A DNA stretch of 64,000 nucleotides, taken from contig CP084166.1 of assembly GCA_021513695.1 (NCBI GenBank), positions 32,001-96,000 of the forward strand, written 5' to 3'. The stretch is from Candidatus Heimdallarchaeum aukensis. Lineage in GTDB: Archaea; Asgardarchaeota; Heimdallarchaeia; Heimdallarchaeales; Heimdallarchaeaceae. The translations under genes and the position numbers were made by a program. Below, piece by piece: positions 259 through 14,251 of the stretch (its first letter is position 1; each line of letters begins with the position of its first letter). Below the pieces are notes generated by a model. The model was not told the DNA's origin. It made no database searches and saw nothing but the letters and a program-made list of their open reading frames with translations.

Positions 259-3147
259 ATGGCTATCAAAACCAAAAAAAACTCCACAAAGAAGAATTTA
301 ATTACTGTTTTTGTAATTTTCTTGGTTTGTTTTAGTTTTATAAATTGTTTAACCTCTAACTTGTTAACTGTAGTAGCTTCAGGAAGCGGAGATTTTCCAC
401 CTCCAAGTAGTGGAGAATGGACAATATCTCAAGAAACAATAGTTAATTCTGAAGTTATTTATATTAATGATTCAGTTTCAATAGAAAGTGGAGGATCTTT
501 AGTATTAGAAAATTGTGTAATAGAAATGAATGGTAATGAAGATGACAAAGCTAATTTTATAGTTAATAATAATGGTAATCTTACAATAATTAATTCTAAA
601 ATAGAAGCTTTTTCTGATTATTCATGGTACATCGAAGCAGAAGAAGGAGCTTCACTTAAAATTACTGACTCAACCCTAATAAACTTCAAAGGAAGCCAAT
701 ATACATCAGTAATTACACTCTATAACAATTATTCTGAAATTACAAACAATAGTATCTCAAACTTCAAATATAAAGCCATTTTTGCTAGATTTACTAGTCA
801 TCATAATAATATTACAAAAAACAAAATAAGTGGAGGGCTTGTTGGTTTTGAAGTAGTCGATGGATGGTACAACGAGATAAATGATAATGAGTTTCACTTA
901 CTATCACAATTTGCGATTGCTATTAATAATGGTAGTTTTTCAAATATTCTTCGAAATAAAATATTTAATGTTTCTTCTATCGCAATCAATTTCCAAAAAT
1001 CAAAGAATGTTTTATGCAATAACAACAATATTTCTACGTCTAAAACTGCAATTGAGTGCTATTCAATCTATAATAGTAGTATCTCTAATAATATGTTCTC
1101 TAATATTCATGATTATTCAATTAGAGTATATACAGGGAATAATGTCACAATATCAAACAATTCAATTGATAATAGCGATTTAGCAAAAGGCATTATTAAT
1201 TCAGCTATTAGCCTGAGTGCGTGTAATAATTTTTCTATTAATGAAAATTCAATAATAAATACCCCAAGAACAGCTCTAGAAATTTTAAGTTCAACAAATT
1301 GTAGAATTTTTAACAATGTTTTTTCCATTAATAATTACTCTATCTTTATCTCTAGTTCTAATTATCTTGAAATTAAAAACAATTTACTATCTTATTCGAA
1401 TGATTATTCTATGTGGTTTATTAAATCAGATTTTTCATTGTTTGAAAACAACACAGTTAATTTTGGTCAATCTTGTGGAATTAGACTAAGTAGCTGTAAC
1501 AATAATTCTATATTAAGGAACATCATATTCAATAATAGTAAATATGGTATCGATATTTCTTCAAGTAATAATAATACGATACTGGAAAATGTTTTTGTTT
1601 TAAACAATAATGGTTCTATTCAAGCTTATGATAATGGATTAAATAATAGCTGGTATAGTAATTTAGAATCTGTTGGTAATTTTTGGAGTGATAATAATGG
1701 ATCATCTTTCTATTTAATAAATGGTGAATCAGGTTCTATGGATATTTTTGCGAATTATTCTGATTACGATAAAGATTTTATTCCTGATTATTATGAACTT
1801 GAAGTTGGTTTAGATATAACAATAAATGATGCTAATGACGACTTAGATGGGGATGGTTTGTCAAACTTCGAAGAATTTACTCTGGGTACTTTTCCTAATG
1901 ATCCTGATAGCGATGATGATGGTTTAATTGATTCAGTAGAAGTAGACTTGAAAACTGATCCTATGTCTAATGATACAGACAATGACAACCTTATTGATGG
2001 GTTAGAAATTCAATATGGATGTGACCCCTTTTCAAATGATACAGACATGGATGGACTAGATGACTGGTCAGAGATATTCTACTACTTCACTGACCCTTTA
2101 GATTATGACACTGATGGTGATGGGTTATCTGACTCTGATGAAGTTTATGCATATAATACAGACCCATTGGACGCTGACACTGATGATGATGGCTTAAATG
2201 ATGTAACTGAAGTACTAGGTTATGGTACTGATCCCAATGATGCAGATACAGATGGAGATGGATTAACAGATTACGAAGAAGTGATTGAATATTTTACTGA
2301 TCCTACGGATGTTGATACTGATGGTGATGGTTTAACAGATTATGAAGAGGTAAAATATTATGGAACAAATCCTAGGAAAGCTGACACTGATGGTGATGGA
2401 ATTTCTGACAATGATGAATTAATTCAAGGAAAAGATCCATTAGTCAATGAGAAACAAAGAAATGTAAGGATAATAATTATTGTATTTTCTGCTTTAGGTT
2501 CTGGTATACTGTTTATAGGATTAACTGTGCTGTTGATACTATTCCTGATAGAAAAGAACAAAAATAAAGAACAAGCATTGTTATCCCTTTTCAAGAAAAA
2601 AATTAGAGAACTAGAAAAGAAAATTAATATTATTGAAACAACAAAAATTGAAGAACTTATGTCTAAGACAGAAGAAAGAGCGAAAATTGATACTTTTTTC
2701 AATGAATTCCTTGAGGTTTTAGTGGACTTCGCAACATATTTTCTGGAAAATGAGGAATTAATTGAGAATAAAAAATGGTTACAAGCCAAAAAGAAGCTAA
2801 ATGAAGAATTAGATAAAGTGAGAGATTGGATTAATAAAAATCTACGTGCTCTAAAGGAATATGATATTTATGACAAACTAGTAAACCAGATAGATGGATT
2901 AGAAAATAAAGAAGAAATTAAGATTAGCAAGTTAGAAGCTTATAAGGAGATTGAAATTGCAAAAGGTATTTTGAGAGAATTCAAAAAAGTAGTAGAGAAA
3001 ACTTCTCCTTTTATCAACAAATTTTCCTATTCTACTTTAACTAAATATTGGGAGATTACAACTGAACTTATATTTGCTAATATGACACAGCTAGAAAAAA
3101 TTGAGGAAAAAATAAAAGATCTACTGGAAAGAGAGAAAACTCTATAA
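259..3147 (+). CDS. Type I membrane surface protein: N-terminal signal/anchor, parallel beta-helix (PbH1/NosD-like) repeats, thrombospondin type-3-like Ca-binding repeats, single TM helix, ~210-aa K/E-rich cytoplasmic coiled-coil tail
   Basis: 962-aa ORF. N-terminal hydrophobic stretch [18 protein letters not shown]. About 500 aa of N/I/S-rich beta-helix repeats ([51 protein letters not shown]). DxDxDGLxDxxE repeats ([36 protein letters not shown]). [29 protein letters not shown] followed by KNKNK and a heptad-like E/K-rich C-terminus. Confidence 0.85.
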
Positions 3148-3149
3148 TC

Positions 3150-3200
3150 TTAATGTTGTTTTTTTCTATTTTTCTTCTTTTACTATTTCTTTTTTAGTTA
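3150..3200. terminator. T-rich bidirectional terminator-like tract between convergent surface-protein genes
   Basis: tgtttttttctatttttcttcttttactatttcttttttag immediately after stop 3147. Archaeal terminators are oligo-T tracts. Confidence 0.4.
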
Positions 3201-3497
3201 AATATTAATTTTAAACTTTGTAACTAGTTTTTCTTGAGAAAGGACTCTTCTCCAGTGAAAAAAACCATCTTCTTGGAATTTGGTCATAATAAAAACATAC
3301 TACCTTTTCGGCAATGGAAATTACCTTTTTTTCCTCTGAAAAGTGGATGCAAATTTATTTATGTGAAGTACTCATTAACCGTCCTAAACGTTTTTTCAAT
3401 GTTCTACCTATGTTTACAAAATATCAGAAATATGTAAAAAGAATAATAAAAGCAAAATAAAAGTAAAAAGAACAAGAAAAAAAGATATAAAAAGATA

Positions 3498-6400
3498 TTA
3501 TTTTCTAGATCTATTTGTTTTTATTGCAAGAATGGTCAAGCCTAAGAGTCCTAGAACGAAATAGAGGAAACTGAATGGATTTTTGGTTGTAGTCTCTTCT
3601 GGATGACTGTTTGAGTCAATAGGGTTAAAACCATTAGACGCTTCGTATCCATCAGTCCAACCATCTCCATCAGTGTCATTATTATGAGGATCAGTATTCC
3701 AATAGAATTCATCTCTATTAGTTAAACCATCTTCATCAGGATCTTCATTAGCATCATCTACTAAAGGATCTAAGTTGTTGTCTACTTCCCAACCATCAGG
3801 CATACCATCATCGTCGGTATCACTGTCAGTAGGGTCGGTGTTATTTGTATATTCTCCTAGATTTGATAAACCATCACTGTCTTTATCATCAGACCCATCA
3901 TCTGTTAATGGGTTTAATTCATATTTTAGTTCCCATCCATCGTCCATTCCATCTCCATCAGTATCTGCGTCAGTGCTTTGAGTGCCTAAAACTACATCTT
4001 CAAGGATATCATCTAAACCGTCTCCATCTATATCAGTTCCACTTATTGGATAAAGATCGACTGAAGAAGCCGTTCCTTGAATATTGGTATAAGTTCCTGT
4101 TGTTCCATTGTAGTCTGACCAATAGTTACCTACTTTTATTTCATCATTATACCATAGATTATTTGACCCATCATCTATAGCTAAAGTAATTTGGTCAAAG
4201 AATAAATAAGAAGCTGAAACGAAATAATTTTGATAGATTAGAGCATTAGAAATCGTAGAAGATAGTGAGATTAAGCAATAAATTTGCCTAATTTCTCCAT
4301 TAATATCAATTATGTCGAATATTTTATTGTACGTAATAATTGCTCCATCAATATCTCCATCTAAACGAATCCCTGCATTAGATACCGTGTTTTCTATGAT
4401 ATTTATAACATTTCTAGTAATCTCGAGATTTTCCCATTGTCCACGAATGTATATTCCTATAGTTCCTCCAGAATTTATTTCATTGTTGTCTATAACAAAA
4501 TTATTTCCTCCATCATTGGCGAAATAAATACCACTGTAAGATGATCCTAGATTTGTTGTTATTTGGTTATATGAGATAGTTATATTGTTGAAGATATTAC
4601 CACTAGCAACATAAATTCCTTTATTACAGTTGCTTATTTGGCTATTAGTTATTATTACATTGTCTACTTTTCTAGCATAATCAGCATAAAGTTCAATTCC
4701 TGAATCTACATTGGAGATGATGGTGTTATTTATTATTAAGCCGTCTGCGGCATAGACATCAATAGCGATTTCTTCATAATTTGATATTATTACATTTTTT
4801 ATTGTAAGATTTTCACTATCAAAAATATATATTGCTTTTGTTGATGTACCATCATGTAAATTTAGGTCTTCAAGAAAAACATTTTTTGAAGTATCAATAC
4901 TTATACTTCCATGTTCAATCTCTGCATTTACAAAAGTAATATTGGTAACTTCGTAAAAGTTTGAGGTACCTGAAAGGGTGTTACTTGTTATTTCGAAATT
5001 ACTAGAATAAGAAATGTAAAACGAGGTATTGGATGACAATATAGCATTATTTGTTATTTCTGTGAACTTTTCTGGCAGATTTGCAATAGTAAAAGCTCTA
5101 TCTACATTTTCAATATAATTGTTGGTAATGTATGTATTTCCTTCCAAAGCGTTACCATAAGAGGAAGTTATTGTGAAAACTTTTTCTGAATCTGAAATAT
5201 CGTTATTATCAAAAGTGACATTACCCACGTAAATTAGATCAAAAGCGGTATTATTAGCGTCTACTATCTCATTATTCACTATTGTAATATTATCATTTAT
5301 TACATAATTTGTGTTATATTTTTTATTTATATCAAGACCGTAAGATACACCTTCTATTATGTTATCTTTAAAAGTCAGAGTAATATTTGCAGTAGTAGAA
5401 TAATCTAAACACATTCCTTTATTTGCTTCATTAATAGTATTTCCTGTCACATTTAATGATTTCGTGTCATATACTATAATTCCATTATAGGCGTTGATAA
5501 ACTCGTTAGAAATTATAATTATTTCTTCATCAGCATATTGATCAATAGGATTCATAATATAAATCGCATTATCGTAAATATTTTCGAAACCGTTACCGGA
5601 AACAGTAATACTTTTTGAATCTTTAATTAAAATTCCTAAATCTGTATTTGATATAGAAAGTGATTTAATGTTAATATTAGTACAATCAATTAGAAATATC
5701 TGACCATAAATGTTAGTGTCAATATTTTTCGTATCGTTGCTAACAAAATAACCTACTTCTTTATTATTTACTTTGTTTCCCTTTACTATTATTGTATTAG
5801 CTTTTTCTTTAAGTGGTGCTAAAAACATCCCATCATTTACTAAAGTATTATTAACAATCTCAATAGTATCTGTTGTTTCCTTAGCAAGATAGATTCCATA
5901 TCCTTTATTTGACTCTATTGAATTATTTGCTATTATTTCATCATTTGATCCACCATTAATTAACAATCCAATATCATCGTTATTATTTATTGAATTATTT
6001 GCAATAGTAATAAAGTCTCCAGTAATATCTATACCTTTATTGTTGAATGAACAGTTATTTCCAGTTATAATTACGTTGTTTGAACCAGTTGAATAAATCC
6101 CTGCGTTACTATTAGATGAACAGGTATTATTTGCAATTATTGCGTTATTAACACCGTAAATGTTTATTCCATTATTACTTCCTGTTATGGTATTATTTAT
6201 TATCTTCTGACTATTAGTCATATAAACATTAATTCCATCTTCATTTCCACTTACAGTGTTTGATTCAATAGTTGCGATTCCATCAGCCACAGATACAATA
6301 TATATTCCCTTTCTAGATGCTTCAATAGAACAATTGACTATCTTAAAGTAAGCTGTTACGCTTAAACTATGAATATAAATTCCATAGTCTGATGATGTCT

Positions 6401-7680: not shown

Positions 7681-9105
7681 ATGGATGATTATGTGACAGT
7701 AGTAGATAAAAATGTTGAACCTACTAAAATTGAGGCTAAAAGAACTCATTTCGGTAATGTTTTTCTATGGTCTTCCTATGATGCTGCTGATACTCTTTTT
7801 TCTCAAGGAATAATTAGTATTGTTTTTCAACCCTTTGTTTTATTATTAGCTTATGAACAAGGTATAACTAATTATTGGACTGCTTTTGCTTTAATGTCAG
7901 CATTTATGGCTTTTTCAAACTTACTTGTAGCTATTTTTGGTCCAATAATTGGATCTATTAGTGATACGATAGGAAAACGAAAATCTGCCGTTCTTATTTC
8001 AGCATCATTAATGGTTATTTCGACACTAGCTTTCCTCATTTGGAGGAACTTTTGGTGGCTTTCAATAATGTTCGTTTTTGCTAACTTTGGTTATCAAGCA
8101 GGACGAATGTTTTACGATTCAATGATACCTTTCATTTCAAAAACAGATCAAAGAGGAATAACATCTGGTATTTCTGGTTCTCTTAGTTTTATTGGGACTT
8201 TTGCTGCCATTGGATTGGCTCAAGTAGCTTATTCAATATGGGGTAAGTTCTCAGAACCTGGAAAGGTATTTGAAGAAGGTGCATCAATAAGTTATACAAG
8301 CTTAGAATGGTTGACTGTTATAGTTATAGCAGGAATATTAGTTTTTACGATACCCTTTCTATTTTCAAAAGAAAAAGAGAATCCAAATTCATTTTCCTTC
8401 AAACAGAACTTAAAACAAGCTAGACTTGAATTTAAAGACACTTTGAAAGAGATTTTCAAGTACAAGAACGCTTTATTGTTTATTTTGGGTTGGTTTTTTG
8501 TAACTGATGCAAGTAATACTACAATTTTATACATGCAACTTGTAATGATTGATGGTGTAGGAGCTGATCCTGGTCAAGCATTAATGATTATTGCAATGGG
8601 TGGACTTTTATCAATGATTGGAGCAATTATTGTAGGTGTGCTTTTAGATAAACTTGGACCAAAGAAAAATTTCATTATCAACATATTCGCTTGGTTTATT
8701 GCAGTAAGTATAGCTATTATTGCATGTATTGAGGTAGATGGAAAACACATCGTTCCTTGGCAAATAATGTTCTTAGTTGGATTCTTTATTGGAATAGGAT
8801 TCGGAGGAATATGGCTTATCGGAAGACAATTTGTTTTTGAAGTTGCTCCTCCGAAGAAAGTTACTCAATATCAAGGATTTAAACAAATTGCAGGAAGAGT
8901 AAGCGCCATTATAAGCCCAATTATGTTCTTGTTGATGCTTGGTTTAGGTGCTAAACTTGGTTTGAGTATTTCCAATCAATATGCAATTGCTCTTGCTCCT
9001 CTCTTAATATTCTTTACAATTGGACTAATAATTGTTCTAAAATATGTTGATGTTCATAAAGAATATCTAGCTGGAGAAAGAGCTCCATATAAGAAATTAC
9101 AATAA
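7681..9105 (+). CDS. MFS-type transporter (polytopic membrane protein)
   Basis: 474-aa ORF with about 12 hydrophobic segments in a 6+6 arrangement and a central hydrophilic loop (KEKENPNSFSFKQNLKQARLEFKDT). Followed by a T-rich terminator-like tract. Confidence 0.65.
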   Translation: MDDYVTVVDKNVEPTKIEAKRTHFGNVFLWSSYDAADTLFSQGIISIVFQPFVLLLAYEQGITNYWTAFALMSAFMAFSNLLVAIFGPIIGSISDTIGKRKSAVLISASLMVISTLAFLIWRNFWWLSIMFVFANFGYQAGRMFYDSMIPFISKTDQRGITSGISGSLSFIGTFAAIGLAQVAYSIWGKFSEPGKVFEEGASISYTSLEWLTVIVIAGILVFTIPFLFSKEKENPNSFSFKQNLKQARLEFKDTLKEIFKYKNALLFILGWFFVTDASNTTILYMQLVMIDGVGADPGQALMIIAMGGLLSMIGAIIVGVLLDKLGPKKNFIINIFAWFIAVSIAIIACIEVDGKHIVPWQIMFLVGFFIGIGFGGIWLIGRQFVFEVAPPKKVTQYQGFKQIAGRVSAIISPIMFLLMLGLGAKLGLSISNQYAIALAPLLIFFTIGLIIVLKYVDVHKEYLAGERAPYKKLQ

Positions 9106-9112
9106 TAATCTA

Positions 9113-9152
9113 AACCCCTTCTTTTTTTCTTTAATTTTAATTACTTTTTTCT
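9113..9152 (+). terminator. T-rich terminator-like tract after the MFS transporter gene
   Basis: ccccttctttttttctttaattttaattacttttttc. Confidence 0.35.
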
Positions 9153-9233
9153 ATAGTTAAAAGATTAGGATAAGAAAATAACGTAGATTGTTTACTATTT
9201 AAAATTAGAAAAAATATGTATTTTTAAATTAAA

Positions 9234-10496
9234 TTATTTATATTCACGAATAACTGGTAGAGTAACTACGCTTTCTATCCATGGTAATTTAGCTATAGAT
9301 TTCCTTATCAAGTTGTAAGCTTTTCCAATATTTCTTAATCTTATTGAAATTATTAAATCATAAACTCCTGAAGTATAAGCGACAGATTCTATACCCCTTA
9401 TTTGAGATAATTTTTCTAAATCGATTTTCTCTCCAATTTTTATTTTAGCAAAGATCAATCCTCTAGTTTCAGACATAGATAAGGTAACTACACCTATTAA
9501 AATAAGGATCGAACCTGATATTTTAAGGATTATACCTACTATATCATTTCCTCCTGAACTGAATATTGCTGGAAACCAAATTGCAAAAATAGCTGCCAAA
9601 GGATAAGTGGAGATAACGCTTATACTGTTTAAAGCTCTTACAATAGACATCTTCCCCATCGTAAGTGCTCTAGTGTAAGCAATTACACCAAGATAAACCA
9701 ATAACATTGAGCAAATTACAGGAACTAAAGAGGGTCTCCAATTTTCTTTTATCTCATTAAAACCTACTCTGTAGATACTAGGAAGCGATGCTATTACTTG
9801 CCCTGCTGTCATAATAAAAAGTGTCCATATTCTTAGACTTAGCGTATCTATCTTTCTTCCTTTATCATTTTTTGTTACTAAAGCTTTCTTTTGAAAAACA
9901 GTATATAATGCCGAAAATAAAGCAAATGGACCAAAGATAAGTAAAATACCTATAGCATCTAATTTTCCACCAGAAATTGTAGAAATCATTACTCCTACAG
10001 CTATCATTGTAATTGATTGGATTTCAATTGCAACAGGTTTTTCTCTTTCTGAAATAGAATCAGCAATAAGCAAGTAAACGAGAACAAATTGGCTAAATGG
10101 CATTATTAGAGATGCATCATACTTTTCTAAAAGAACAAAATAGAGTATAGTGTTTCCTGTAGCAAAAAGACCAGCAAGAAGGGTATATAGTAAAACTTTG
10201 CCTTTAGGAAACATTATTCCTTGAAAATTAGGGTCAAAATAGTAACCCAGAGTTTTCTTAAATTCTTTATCTTTGTTTGGTAGAGGAATAGAAAGAATAA
10301 GTATAAGAATTATTGACACTATTAAACCTACAACCATCTCATATGCTCCAAAAAGATAAGGATCAGTAATGAAACTGTTGCCAATTGCATCTAGTACTAC
10401 CCACAGGCTAGTGATTAAACCAGATCCCAAGGCTAGTAGATAAAACGTACTTTTTCTTCTAATTTTACTAAATTCTCTATGGGCTGCAATTGACAT
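9234..10496 (-). CDS. DMT/EamA-like 10-TM membrane protein fused to a C-terminal Lrp/AsnC-type RAM (amino-acid-sensing) domain
   Basis: 420-aa ORF. About 340 aa of hydrophobic TM segments, then a C-terminal ~80 aa (IRGIESVAYTSGVYDLIISIRLRNIGKAYNLIRKSIAKLPWIESVVTLPVIREY) with the beta-alpha-beta-beta-alpha-beta RAM-domain pattern of Lrp/AsnC regulators. Confidence 0.7.
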   Translation of the reverse strand: MSIAAHREFSKIRRKSTFYLLALGSGLITSLWVVLDAIGNSFITDPYLFGAYEMVVGLIVSIILILILSIPLPNKDKEFKKTLGYYFDPNFQGIMFPKGKVLLYTLLAGLFATGNTILYFVLLEKYDASLIMPFSQFVLVYLLIADSISEREKPVAIEIQSITMIAVGVMISTISGGKLDAIGILLIFGPFALFSALYTVFQKKALVTKNDKGRKIDTLSLRIWTLFIMTAGQVIASLPSIYRVGFNEIKENWRPSLVPVICSMLLVYLGVIAYTRALTMGKMSIVRALNSISVISTYPLAAIFAIWFPAIFSSGGNDIVGIILKISGSILILIGVVTLSMSETRGLIFAKIKIGEKIDLEKLSQIRGIESVAYTSGVYDLIISIRLRNIGKAYNLIRKSIAKLPWIESVVTLPVIREYK

Positions 10497-10508
10497 ATAA
10501 AACTCTCC

Positions 10509-10760
10509 TTATTCTTCTCCAATTATTTCTTTCTCTACAATACAAGTTTGTGTACTTTCAAGACCTGGGATGAGATGTATGCACTCTGAAGTAATGTTGT
10601 AAAGTTCTTCTAAATCTTTAACTTTGATAGTAGCAACAATGTCCCACTCACCAGTAACAACAGCACAACTTGTTATCGCATGAATTTTTCTTAATTCATT
10701 GACCACTTCTTGAGTCTTACCTAATTTTACTGTCATAAGAATATATGCTGTGATTATCAT
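10509..10760 (-). CDS. Stand-alone Lrp/AsnC RAM-domain protein (small ligand-binding regulator domain)
   Basis: 83-aa ORF MIITAYILMTVKLGKTQEVVNELRKIHAITSCAVVTGEWDIVATIKVKDLEELYNITSECIHLIPGLESTQT, matching the RAM-domain pattern (V..A..VTGE.D....V...L..L......I.....V....T...). 12 nt from the upstream transporter-RAM fusion on the same strand. Confidence 0.6.
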   Translation of the reverse strand: MIITAYILMTVKLGKTQEVVNELRKIHAITSCAVVTGEWDIVATIKVKDLEELYNITSECIHLIPGLESTQTCIVEKEIIGEE

Positions 10761-10898
10761 TAAATTTTCAAAAGACTTTTTACCCTAAAAATCTTACTTT
10801 CATTTACGAAGATAAAAATATTTTAGCCTTTATTCTTCAGAAAAAGAGTCTTCGTTATACCAATAATTACAAATATATCTAATTCTGGAGTATTTCAT

Positions 10899-13261: not shown

Positions 13262-14251
13262 TTAATGTTCAATAAATTCTTTCTCGCTTATAACTTTACA
13301 TGTTAATGTTTTAGCAGCAAAAGGTATGAAACTTTTTTCTAGCTCCTTTTTAACCTTTTCAAAAATCAAATAGCGATTTTCTTCACTTGTTAGATCCAAA
13401 GTAATGATTTCAGTTAAATTTTCTATTAATGTAAGCAAAGGACCTTTTTCTATTAGTACATACTCTGTTGTTACTAATAAAGCAATGTTATGATAACTAA
13501 TAAACAGTAGTTTATATTCCTCAAAGTTAATTTCTTCCATTGAACTAAGTTGTTTTTTGTTTGTTGAATTTAGCCACTTATTCTCATAAGCACTAATTAT
13601 GTTCTTAACTTTTTCTCTGGTTCTTGTATTATCGTGTATATGAAGATTAACTCCGTCTTTTTTAATGAAAATATCTACCGATAAAATGTTTGGCATTAAT
13701 CCTGTTTTTTTACTAACCAACTTGCTTATTAACCAATTCATCGCATCGCTTATGTATTCGCCTGTTTTGACTGAAATGAAAAAGAATCGAAAACTCATCT
13801 GACTTTCAATTGAAATTAATTTGTTAAGTTCAAATCCTTTAACAATTTCTTCAATAACTCTTTCTTTTTCTGTAATTAAGTCCATCTTATTACCTAGAAA
13901 AAGCACTGGTATATCTTTGTTTTTTATCCATTCTAAAATAGTATAGAACCATTCTTTACTTTCTGGTAAACTTTCTAAATTTGAAGCGTCAAAAATGAAA
14001 ATTAAAGCAGAGGAAAGATTAATGTAATTTTTCCAAATGTGCTTTCTGAATGCTTGGTGTCCCCCCATATCCCAAATTTGAAGGGGAAAACCTTGGTACT
14101 CGGTAAATTCTACATCAACACCTAAAGTCGGAGGAGAAGAAACAAAGGTTCCCGATAGTAACCTTTGGGTAAAGCTAGATTTTCCGGCTTGTGGAAGGCC
14201 AGTTATAGCAATAGAGAATCTTGTCATTTTTGAGTTCACTTCAATTAGCAC
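13262..14251 (-). CDS. Arf/Sar-family-like small GTPase with ~150-aa C-terminal extension of unknown function
   Basis: 329-aa ORF. P-loop GLPQAGKSS. PTLGVDVEFTEY resembles Arf PTIGFNVETVEY. Switch II WDMGGHQ (Arf WDVGGQ) followed by RKHIWKNY (Arf RPLWRHY). IFIFDASN (Arf IFVVDSND). NKMD (NKxD). C-terminal G5-like SVKTGEYISDAMNWLISKL (Arf ATSGDGLYEGLDWL). Confidence 0.8.
   Translation of the reverse strand: MLIEVNSKMTRFSIAITGLPQAGKSSFTQRLLSGTFVSSPPTLGVDVEFTEYQGFPLQIWDMGGHQAFRKHIWKNYINLSSALIFIFDASNLESLPESKEWFYTILEWIKNKDIPVLFLGNKMDLITEKERVIEEIVKGFELNKLISIESQMSFRFFFISVKTGEYISDAMNWLISKLVSKKTGLMPNILSVDIFIKKDGVNLHIHDNTRTREKVKNIISAYENKWLNSTNKKQLSSMEEINFEEYKLLFISYHNIALLVTTEYVLIEKGPLLTLIENLTEIITLDLTSEENRYLIFEKVKKELEKSFIPFAAKTLTCKVISEKEFIEH

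Follow-up and report, generated by a model that had tools for sequence, protein, structure and literature searches.

RAM domains are known almost solely from Lrp/AsnC transcription factors, where they form the half that senses the effector. The subject of this analysis is a pair of adjacent genes within a 64,000-nucleotide stretch of the Candidatus Heimdallarchaeum aukensis genome (contig CP084166.1, positions 32,001 to 96,000; hereafter the window), one encoding a stand-alone RAM protein of 83 residues (the free RAM protein) and the other a 420-residue DMT/EamA-type membrane transporter that carries a second RAM domain as its C-terminal tail (the fusion). Among described systems, Lrp/AsnC (FFRP) regulators of adjacent EamA/DMT or other amino-acid exporter genes resemble this locus in that a RAM sensor and an EamA-type transporter are encoded side by side; the Pseudomonas aeruginosa Lrp/AsnC regulator PA2577, for instance, represses the divergent EamA gene PA2576 (PMC8707732). 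Stand-alone RAM proteins have likewise been described, as the DM1 type of Pyrococcus horikoshii, and their physiological role is considered unclear; in vitro, DM1 and FL11 form a hetero-octamer, which provides a precedent for a free RAM protein entering the RAM ring of another protein (PMC2995911).

The construction of a RAM pocket is known from the Grp-glutamine structure, in which the amino group of the ligand is held by D102 and the 99-102 loop (a G-x-x-D motif) and its carboxylate by T132 and T134 (a T-x-T motif) of a symmetry-related subunit (PMC2504300). Archaeal RAM pockets have similarly been described as built by strands and loops of separate dimers, with two ligands per dimer-dimer interface, and ligand-driven shifts between dimers and octamers are known in the Lrp family (PMC2995911). 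In the locus studied here, the free RAM protein carries both motifs and the tail of the fusion just one, and the two genes stand next to each other in every relative that could be evaluated. We consider it somewhat better than an even chance (a rough probability of 0.55) that they form a conserved archaeal two-gene module in which a hetero-oligomeric cytoplasmic RAM sensor, made of the tail and the free RAM protein, gates a DMT transporter.

Fold and spread of the fused transporter

An earlier note on this DNA, made from the sequence alone, had read the longer protein as a DMT/EamA-like membrane protein ending in an approximately 80-residue segment with the RAM pattern, and the shorter protein, encoded 12 nucleotides upstream, as essentially a RAM domain alone. 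Both open reading frames (ORFs) have the positions, sizes, and spacing given there (Table 1), and the Pfam scan that it proposed bears out all three domains, each passing the gathering cut-off (28.2 bits for EamA, PF00892; 25 bits for AsnC_trans_reg, PF01037). The fusion scores 44.9 bits against EamA, in two stretches, and 30.0 bits against AsnC_trans_reg (residues 361-418, E = 5e-07), the latter reaching 33.7 bits when the tail is scanned by itself, while the free RAM protein matches AsnC_trans_reg with 58 bits over residues 8-75 (E = 8.8e-16). The free protein consists of this single RAM domain and no other, and its size falls within the range of approximately 75-90 residues expected of the stand-alone DM1 type. 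Scans with Pfam and NCBIfam found no helix-turn-helix (HTH) domain in either protein, and neither shows the N-terminal HTH ahead of the RAM domain that characterizes an Lrp/AsnC transcription factor. NCBIfam models for Lrp, LysM, and AsnC proteins touch only the RAM half of the free protein, far under their cut-offs, and for the fusion there is no matching NCBIfam model.

The hydropathy profile of the fusion resolves ten transmembrane (TM) segments, as required of the 5+5 arrangement of DMT/EamA proteins, and the Lys/Arg-rich N-terminus and loops 2-3, 6-7, and 8-9 point to an N-in/C-in topology, which, with ten TM helices, places the RAM tail in the cytoplasm. An AlphaFold2 model derived from 27 aligned family sequences (mean predicted local distance difference test score, pLDDT, of 76.4; predicted template modelling score, pTM, of 0.71) contains ten long helices, the last of which (residues 319-340) is followed directly by a strand (342-352), a helix (360-364), two strands (369-374 and 381-389), a helix (393-402), and a final strand (407-416). 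In this model, the tail at residues 342-416 forms a full beta-alpha-beta-beta-alpha-beta domain that follows TM10 with no linker between them, and the S342-E343 junction is near-invariant in the Heimdall-clade alignment. According to the alignments and the topology model, most of the invariant polar residues of the membrane domain face the cytoplasm, namely D88, E158, D217, R222, R276, and K282.

Structure comparison supports both parts of the fusion. Foldseek searches of the PDB matched the membrane part to the triose-phosphate translocator TPT (5y78), LicB (7paf), SLC35B1, the CMP-sialic acid transporter (CST), and YddG (5i20), with a probability of 1.0 and target-normalised TM-scores of 0.57-0.80 for 5y78, 7paf, 9i20, 6oh3, and 5i20, and the tail superposed on the RAM domain of FL11 (PH1519; 2znz and 2cyy) with a root-mean-square deviation of 2.7-2.9 Å over approximately 80 columns (2znz: 2.7 Å, 81 columns). 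The DMT alignments span approximately 325-375 columns and the RAM alignments approximately 80-125, and no solved chain among the Foldseek PDB matches spans both the membrane and the RAM part. When the free RAM protein was compared with PDB sequences, it aligned over its full length with the FL11 RAM domain (2cyy, 1ri7) and with stand-alone RAM proteins (2e1a, 2cvi, 2zbc, and 2djw), including ones of 75, 83, and 92 residues, and its nearest solved relatives were FL11 and the 75-residue 2e1a; the full-length alignment to FL11- and DM1-type structures supports a ferredoxin-like fold for this protein as well. The free and the fused RAM domains share 28% identity (E = 1e-10).

A survey of other genomes, also proposed in the earlier note, found the fusion to be widespread. 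A word-index search returned 37 relatives of full length, between 37% and 99% identical and each from a Heimdall or other Asgard metagenome-assembled genome (MAG), and a family profile gave 175 matches among 1.84 billion representatives, approximately 30 of which are full-length representatives that include the RAM tail; with clustering at 50% identity, the fusion is kept down to approximately 26% identity in about 30 clusters. The architecture is unbroken in more than 100 contigs at 26-99% identity, including the complete genome of Ca. Heimdallarchaeum endolithica PR6 (CP084167.1), where the fusion gene is 98% identical. The RAM tail is kept throughout the family in the broad alignment, with the tails of distant members scoring 30-38 bits over the whole Pfam profile; these distant members fall under the cut-off of the EamA hidden Markov model (HMM), yet align with the family profile over its whole length. 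All sources that carry a name are archaea, mainly Asgard lineages (Heimdall, Hodarchaeales, Thor, Odin, Baldr, Njord, Hermod, and Asgardarchaeum), together with a few from DPANN Woesearchaeota and Nanohaloarchaea and from MAGs labelled Thermoplasmatota, Thermoprotei, and Nitrososphaerota; the labels given to non-Asgard MAGs may not be reliable. Because it is conserved across many assemblies and deep divergence, the fusion is real, rather than a frameshift artefact, and it is old.

Several members of the family are publicly named "Lrp/AsnC" or "DNA-binding Lrp family transcriptional regulator" (P0020, P0032, P0046, P0072, P0199, and P0205-P0209), which, given that these are 10-TM proteins with no HTH, looks like systematic misannotation, and the practical consequence is that many fusion members are listed as transcription factors in public databases. 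A lower tier of proteins of approximately 340 residues (P0080, P0083, P0086, P0087, P0093, and others) matches the membrane domain alone (approximately positions 11-346 of the profile) and has neither a Pfam hit nor a RAM tail. At three MAG or metagenome loci, the fusion gene is broken into a pair of ORFs (L041, 406-1632; L093, 769-1587; L102, 546-1720), an apparent frameshift or sequencing error, and the free RAM gene is still present.

The adjoining RAM partner and its pocket motifs

The gene for a free RAM protein is a constant neighbor of the fusion gene. We took 46 loci from an Asgard-type set (clade 1) and scanned all ORFs for RAM domains; 43 were evaluable, the contig ending exactly at the expected partner position in the other three (L033, L035, and L040). 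A second, distant set (clade 2), which includes clusters labelled Thermoplasmatota, provided 61 metagenome loci (L047-L107), 50 of them evaluable. A free RAM gene adjoins the fusion gene on the same strand in 93 of the 93 evaluable loci (43/43 in clade 1 and 50/50 in clade 2), although full independence is lacking among the loci, many of which derive from MAGs and related samples; distinct free RAM sequences number 42 and 49, respectively. These partner homologs were drawn from the loci themselves, as a word-index search with the 83-residue protein gave only five proteins. A protein annotated from Ca. Heimdallarchaeum aukensis shares 100% identity with the free RAM protein of the window.

The order and spacing of the two genes vary more than their adjacency. 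In clade 1, where the adjoining free RAM ORF encodes 81-101 residues, it lies upstream of the fusion gene at 31 loci (Heimdall, Odin, Baldr, Njord, and others) and downstream at 12, of which 11 are labelled Thorarchaeota and one just uncultured archaeon; an example of the Thorarchaeota order, from loci L028-L046, is L037, with the fusion at 3001-4260 and the free RAM gene at 4281-4535. In clade 2, it lies upstream in all 50 evaluable loci, most often with a 4-nucleotide ATGA overlap between its stop and the start of the fusion gene (in L047, 2265-2504 and 2501-3745), and spacing in relatives ranges from this overlap up to approximately 38 nucleotides. Adjacency is thereby kept through a swap of gene order and through full turnover of the surrounding neighborhood, and, since the wider neighborhood differs between the clades, the conserved unit is the gene pair. 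Despite sharing one reading frame in the window, with a single TAA between them, the free RAM and fusion ORFs are separate genes in all relatives examined. Pairwise identities of the free RAM protein, the tail, and the membrane domain correlate (r = 0.93-0.94), which fits co-inheritance of the three as a unit.

The two RAM types differ consistently in their pocket motifs. When all free RAM partners and tails were aligned to FL11, the canonical pocket for an amino-acid backbone, which combines G-x-x-D and T-x-T, was found to be complete in the free RAM protein of the window (G37/D40 and T70/T72) and near-invariant in its relatives: the Gly and the Asp of G-x-x-D are each present in 91 of 91 sequences (42/42 in clade 1 and 49/49 in clade 2), the first Thr of T-x-T in 88/91 (41/42 and 47/49), and the second in 89/91 (42/42 and 47/49). 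The two clade-2 exceptions in T-x-T resemble tail fragments of truncated fusion genes. The tails keep the G-x-x-D half (G377 and D380 in the window), with Gly in 82/83 (40/41 and 42/42) and Asp in 82/83 (41/41 and 41/42), and this motif is near-invariant in both the Heimdall-clade and the broad family alignments. The T-x-T equivalent, by contrast, is degenerate in the tails (V410-V-T412 in the window), and its first Thr occurs in none of 83, being replaced by Val or Ile in clade 1 (0/41; Val or Ile in all 39 tails covering the position) and by Tyr or Phe in clade 2 (0/42), while the second position is Thr or Ser in 36/41 clade-1 tails and Trp in clade 2 (Thr in 0/42). The tail has a RAM fold but just one half of the pocket code. 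It also has a basic feature of its own, an Arg at the position of R388 and a Lys or Arg at that of K392, each invariant in 83 of 83 tails (41/41 and 42/42), whereas free RAM proteins have Glu, Asn, Asp, or Lys there.

Proposed mechanism and alternatives

From these observations, we infer a physical interaction between the two RAM types and, with it, a class of ligand, a stoichiometry, and a means of gating. The earlier note had already suggested direct gating of an amino-acid or metabolite exporter and hetero-oligomerisation with the free RAM protein, and each element of its reading that could be checked was borne out. The first gene of the operon would provide the free RAM protein and the second a 10-TM DMT/EamA-type secondary transporter with a RAM tail. 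Because the carboxylate-binding half is missing, the tail should be unable to complete canonical pockets with its own copies, and, keeping G-x-x-D alone, it would therefore need T-x-T from the free RAM protein; a mixed pocket, with G-x-x-D from the tail and T-x-T from the free protein, would be complete. As read from the alignments, the complementary pocket motifs of the two RAM types are what a hetero-oligomer would predict. Tail and free RAM protein may accordingly be pictured as assembling beneath the transporter, on its cytoplasmic face, where the predicted ligand of the hetero-oligomer is an amino acid from the cytoplasm or a comparable small metabolite. Assembly or rearrangement in response to this ligand would be relayed to the transport domain via the rigid, linker-less junction between TM10 and the first strand of the tail, and possibly also via the conserved cytoplasmic loops, and transport would be switched on or off. 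With the RAM domain built covalently into the transporter, any such control would be post-translational, in effect a feast/famine control of the transporter itself.

By analogy, export appears somewhat more likely as the direction of transport, because characterised prokaryotic members of the EamA family are mostly exporters; against this reading, the closest structural matches of the membrane domain include the importer LicB. In clade 2, the tail aromatics that stand in place of T-x-T might serve as a built-in pseudo-ligand. A stricter version of the mechanism holds that tail and free RAM protein form an obligate, amino-acid-binding ring or stack in which only the mixed pockets are functional and their occupancy directly opens or closes the transporter; we put this forward tentatively, judging the odds to be against it.

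Several points weigh against a gating sensor. Co-divergence is expected of any adjacent, vertically inherited genes, so that the correlated identities are weak evidence alone, and the genes around the pair are not conserved across clades, being wholly replaced outside the closer Heimdall relatives. For some archaeal RAM domains, amino acids are not considered to be ligands at all (PMC2995911). The net charges of the two RAM types are opposed in the Asgard set (-5.8 for the free protein versus +3.2 for the tail), but not in clade 2 (+0.9 versus +4.2). Electrostatic complementarity had been considered as a general signature of the interface and was dropped, as it is true of the Asgard set only and absent in clade 2.

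Two alternatives assign another purpose to the two RAM types. The tail and the free RAM protein might have a structural role, as an oligomerisation or capping scaffold that clusters, dimerises, or stabilises the transporter, with no ligand sensing and no control by metabolites. RAM domains are strong oligomerisation modules, Grp octamers form without ligand (PMC2504300), the tail has lost part of the ligand motif, and amino-acid binding is not predicted for some RAM proteins of archaea (PMC2995911), all of which would suit a scaffold. We nevertheless regard it as unlikely, given that G-x-x-D and T-x-T are near-invariant over approximately 90 distinct free RAM sequences and that G-x-x-D persists in 82 of 83 tails, a conservation hard to account for without ligand binding.

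We think it similarly improbable that the pair acts chiefly as a transceptor, by membrane sequestration with transcription as its output, in which the tail would capture or release the free RAM protein depending on the flux of substrate or on a ligand, and the released protein would join full-length Lrp/FFRP regulators and alter gene expression. The in vitro hetero-octamer of DM1 and FL11, proposed as a reason for the existence of stand-alone RAM proteins (PMC2995911), speaks for such a role, as does the finding that, among solved structures, the RAM domain of FL11 lies nearest to the free RAM protein. However, the strict one-to-one adjacency in 93 of 93 loci and the frequent translational coupling through ATGA point to the tail as the dedicated partner, and no Lrp-type regulator with an HTH was found in the window, where only the fusion and free RAM ORFs match the free-RAM HMM. 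Sequestration and direct gating could also coexist. Lastly, that the 420-residue ORF is a frameshift or assembly join of a transporter and a RAM gene, or its tail a chance match, has a negligible probability: although the tail score of 30 bits is modestly above the cut-off of 25, covers profile positions 16-73, and is accompanied by broken genes at some MAG loci (L041, L093, and L102), the join is ruled out by conservation of the architecture in more than 100 contigs and a complete genome, and the chance match by the full predicted RAM fold, its superposition on FL11, and the whole-profile Pfam matches of distant tails.

Gene neighborhood and relation to known systems

The features of the gene pair and of the surrounding window are listed in Table 1. 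The promoter of the pair presumably lies inside the AT-rich divergent intergenic region, and, judging from its oligo-T runs, the convergent intergenic region is likely the terminator region of the fusion gene; an Rfam scan found no Rfam element, riboswitch, or other known RNA near the operon.

Table 1. Coordinates, within the window, of the two RAM genes, their motifs, and neighboring features
Feature	Position	Strand	Basis
Free (stand-alone) RAM-domain protein gene, 83 residues	10509..10760	-	ORF list, Pfam
Free RAM G37-E-W-D40, G-x-x-D loop; predicted half-site for the ligand amino group	10641..10652	-	Aligned to FL11, read with the Grp pocket code
Free RAM T70-Q-T72, T-x-T strand; predicted half-site for the ligand carboxylate, given in trans to the adjacent dimer	10545..10553	-	Role from PMC2504300
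TAA stop of free RAM gene	10509-10511	-	
Intergenic spacer, 12 nucleotides	10497..10508	-	Sequence
GGAG Shine-Dalgarno-like motif, 8 nucleotides ahead of the fusion-gene ATG	10505-10508	-	Sequence
Fusion ORF, 420 residues	9234..10496	-	ORF list
Fusion residues 1-342, 10-TM DMT/EamA-like membrane domain	9471..10496	-	Pfam, topology, Foldseek
Fusion residues 343-420, cytoplasmic RAM tail, no linker to TM10	9237..9470	-	Pfam, model, Foldseek
Tail G377-V-Y-D380, retained G-x-x-D half-site	9357..9368	-	Alignment
Tail-specific basic motif R388-N-I-G-K392	9321..9335	-	Alignment
Tail V410-V-T412, degenerate T-x-T equivalent, first Thr lost	9261..9269	-	Alignment
Fusion-gene stop codon	9234-9236	-	
AT-rich divergent intergenic region, 138 nucleotides, between free RAM gene and GT4 glycosyltransferase gene	10761..10898	.	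Sequence
Convergent intergenic region, 128 nucleotides, oligo-T runs past the fusion-gene stop	9106..9233	.	Sequence
MFS_1/ATG22-like transporter gene	7681-9105	+	
Response-regulator receiver domain fused to approximately 170 residues	12074-12958	-	
Arf/Ras/Roc-like small GTPase with C-terminal extension	13262-14251	-	
Giant ORF, 2,073 residues	34692-40913	+	
Giant ORF, 2,669 residues	40913-48922	+	

Genes for MFS/ATG22-like, AstE_AspA-like, MBL-fold, and OsmC proteins recur beside the module only in the closer Heimdall relatives. The convergently oriented neighbor of the fusion gene, an MFS_1/ATG22-like transporter resembling vacuolar amino-acid effluxers, is found in the same arrangement in L005, L008, and partly L004, and not in other clades. 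Assigning a transport substrate from the gene neighborhood was attempted and dropped, as the neighboring genes are replaced in other clades.

Farther upstream of the pair lies a gene for a small GTPase of Arf/Ras/Roc type (residues 7-177), extended at its C-terminus by approximately 150 uncharacterised residues. Beside it, the product of another gene joins a response-regulator receiver domain to approximately 170 residues for which Pfam gives no match. A glycosyltransferase, response regulator, and GTPase trio likewise flanks the RAM-transporter module in L004, and the glycosyltransferase and response regulator pair is also present in L001, L005, L006, and L008; the third gene of those loci gave no match in Pfam. 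Elsewhere in the window, two abutting giant ORFs, one with bacterial TSP3 repeats (2,073 residues) and the other with FG-GAP-like repeats (2,669 residues), probably encode giant secreted or surface proteins; the guanine-cytosine content of this stretch is 0.33-0.40, against a background of approximately 0.30.

The earlier note had described the architecture as not a commonly described one, and our search agrees, in that no account of a RAM-transporter fusion or of this operon was found in full-text literature, a coverage that includes few subscription journals. The individual parts do have known counterparts. Solved DMT transporters (YddG, 5i20; the triose-phosphate translocator, 5y78; LicB, 7paf; and SLC35 nucleotide-sugar transporters) share the 10-TM fold with the fusion; however, none of those matched aligns to both domains, and at 11-18% identity their substrates are not transferable to it. 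In systems of the PA2577/PA2576 type, the RAM domain belongs to a DNA-binding HTH protein that controls transcription of the transporter gene, whereas here there is no HTH and the RAM domain is covalently attached to the transporter. The DM1-type protein of Pyrococcus horikoshii resembles the free RAM protein in its single RAM domain, its size, and its pocket motifs; its partner FL11 is a DNA-binding regulator, whereas the partner in this module would be the tail of a membrane transporter, hard-wired in the same operon. For one stand-alone RAM family, the module supplies a specific partner that is fixed in the genome, namely the RAM tail of a DMT transporter, and the asymmetry of motifs offers a testable reason for having two different RAM proteins. 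Should the stricter version with obligate mixed pockets be true, the module would act as a feast/famine switch at the level of the membrane, with transcription bypassed, and a family of stand-alone RAM proteins would gain its first defined physiological role.

Sensor domains are known to act directly on transporters in unrelated systems. In the methionine ABC importer MetNI, C-terminal C2/NIL ferredoxin-like domains bind the amino acid at a domain interface and switch transport (trans-inhibition). Like the fusion, MetNI has a beta-alpha-beta-beta-alpha-beta domain on a transporter subunit, but that subunit is an ABC ATPase, the domain belongs to another family, and its regulatory domains are homodimeric, with no separate free partner. 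AmtB-GlnK, a two-gene operon of an ammonium channel and a small soluble PII metabolite sensor that docks on the cytoplasmic face to regulate flux, is likewise a gene pair of a membrane transporter and a small sensor with a ferredoxin-like fold; the families are unrelated, however, comprising an Amt channel and a PII trimer with a T-loop, AmtB has no fused sensor, and the ligands of GlnK are ATP, ADP, and 2-oxoglutarate. A sensor domain on a transporter is therefore a known principle, and what has not been described before is the RAM family in this position, the proposed requirement for a partner, and the asymmetry of motifs. If the gating sensor is confirmed, RAM would join the short list of cytoplasmic sensor domains that directly regulate transporters, which includes CBS, RCK/TrkA_C, STAS, the NIL/C2 domain of MetN, and PII on AmtB. 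The module suggests nutrient sensing that is wired directly to a transporter rather than to DNA, and, on confirmation, the bacterial pairing of an Lrp regulator gene with an EamA exporter gene would have a post-translational counterpart in Asgard and other archaea.

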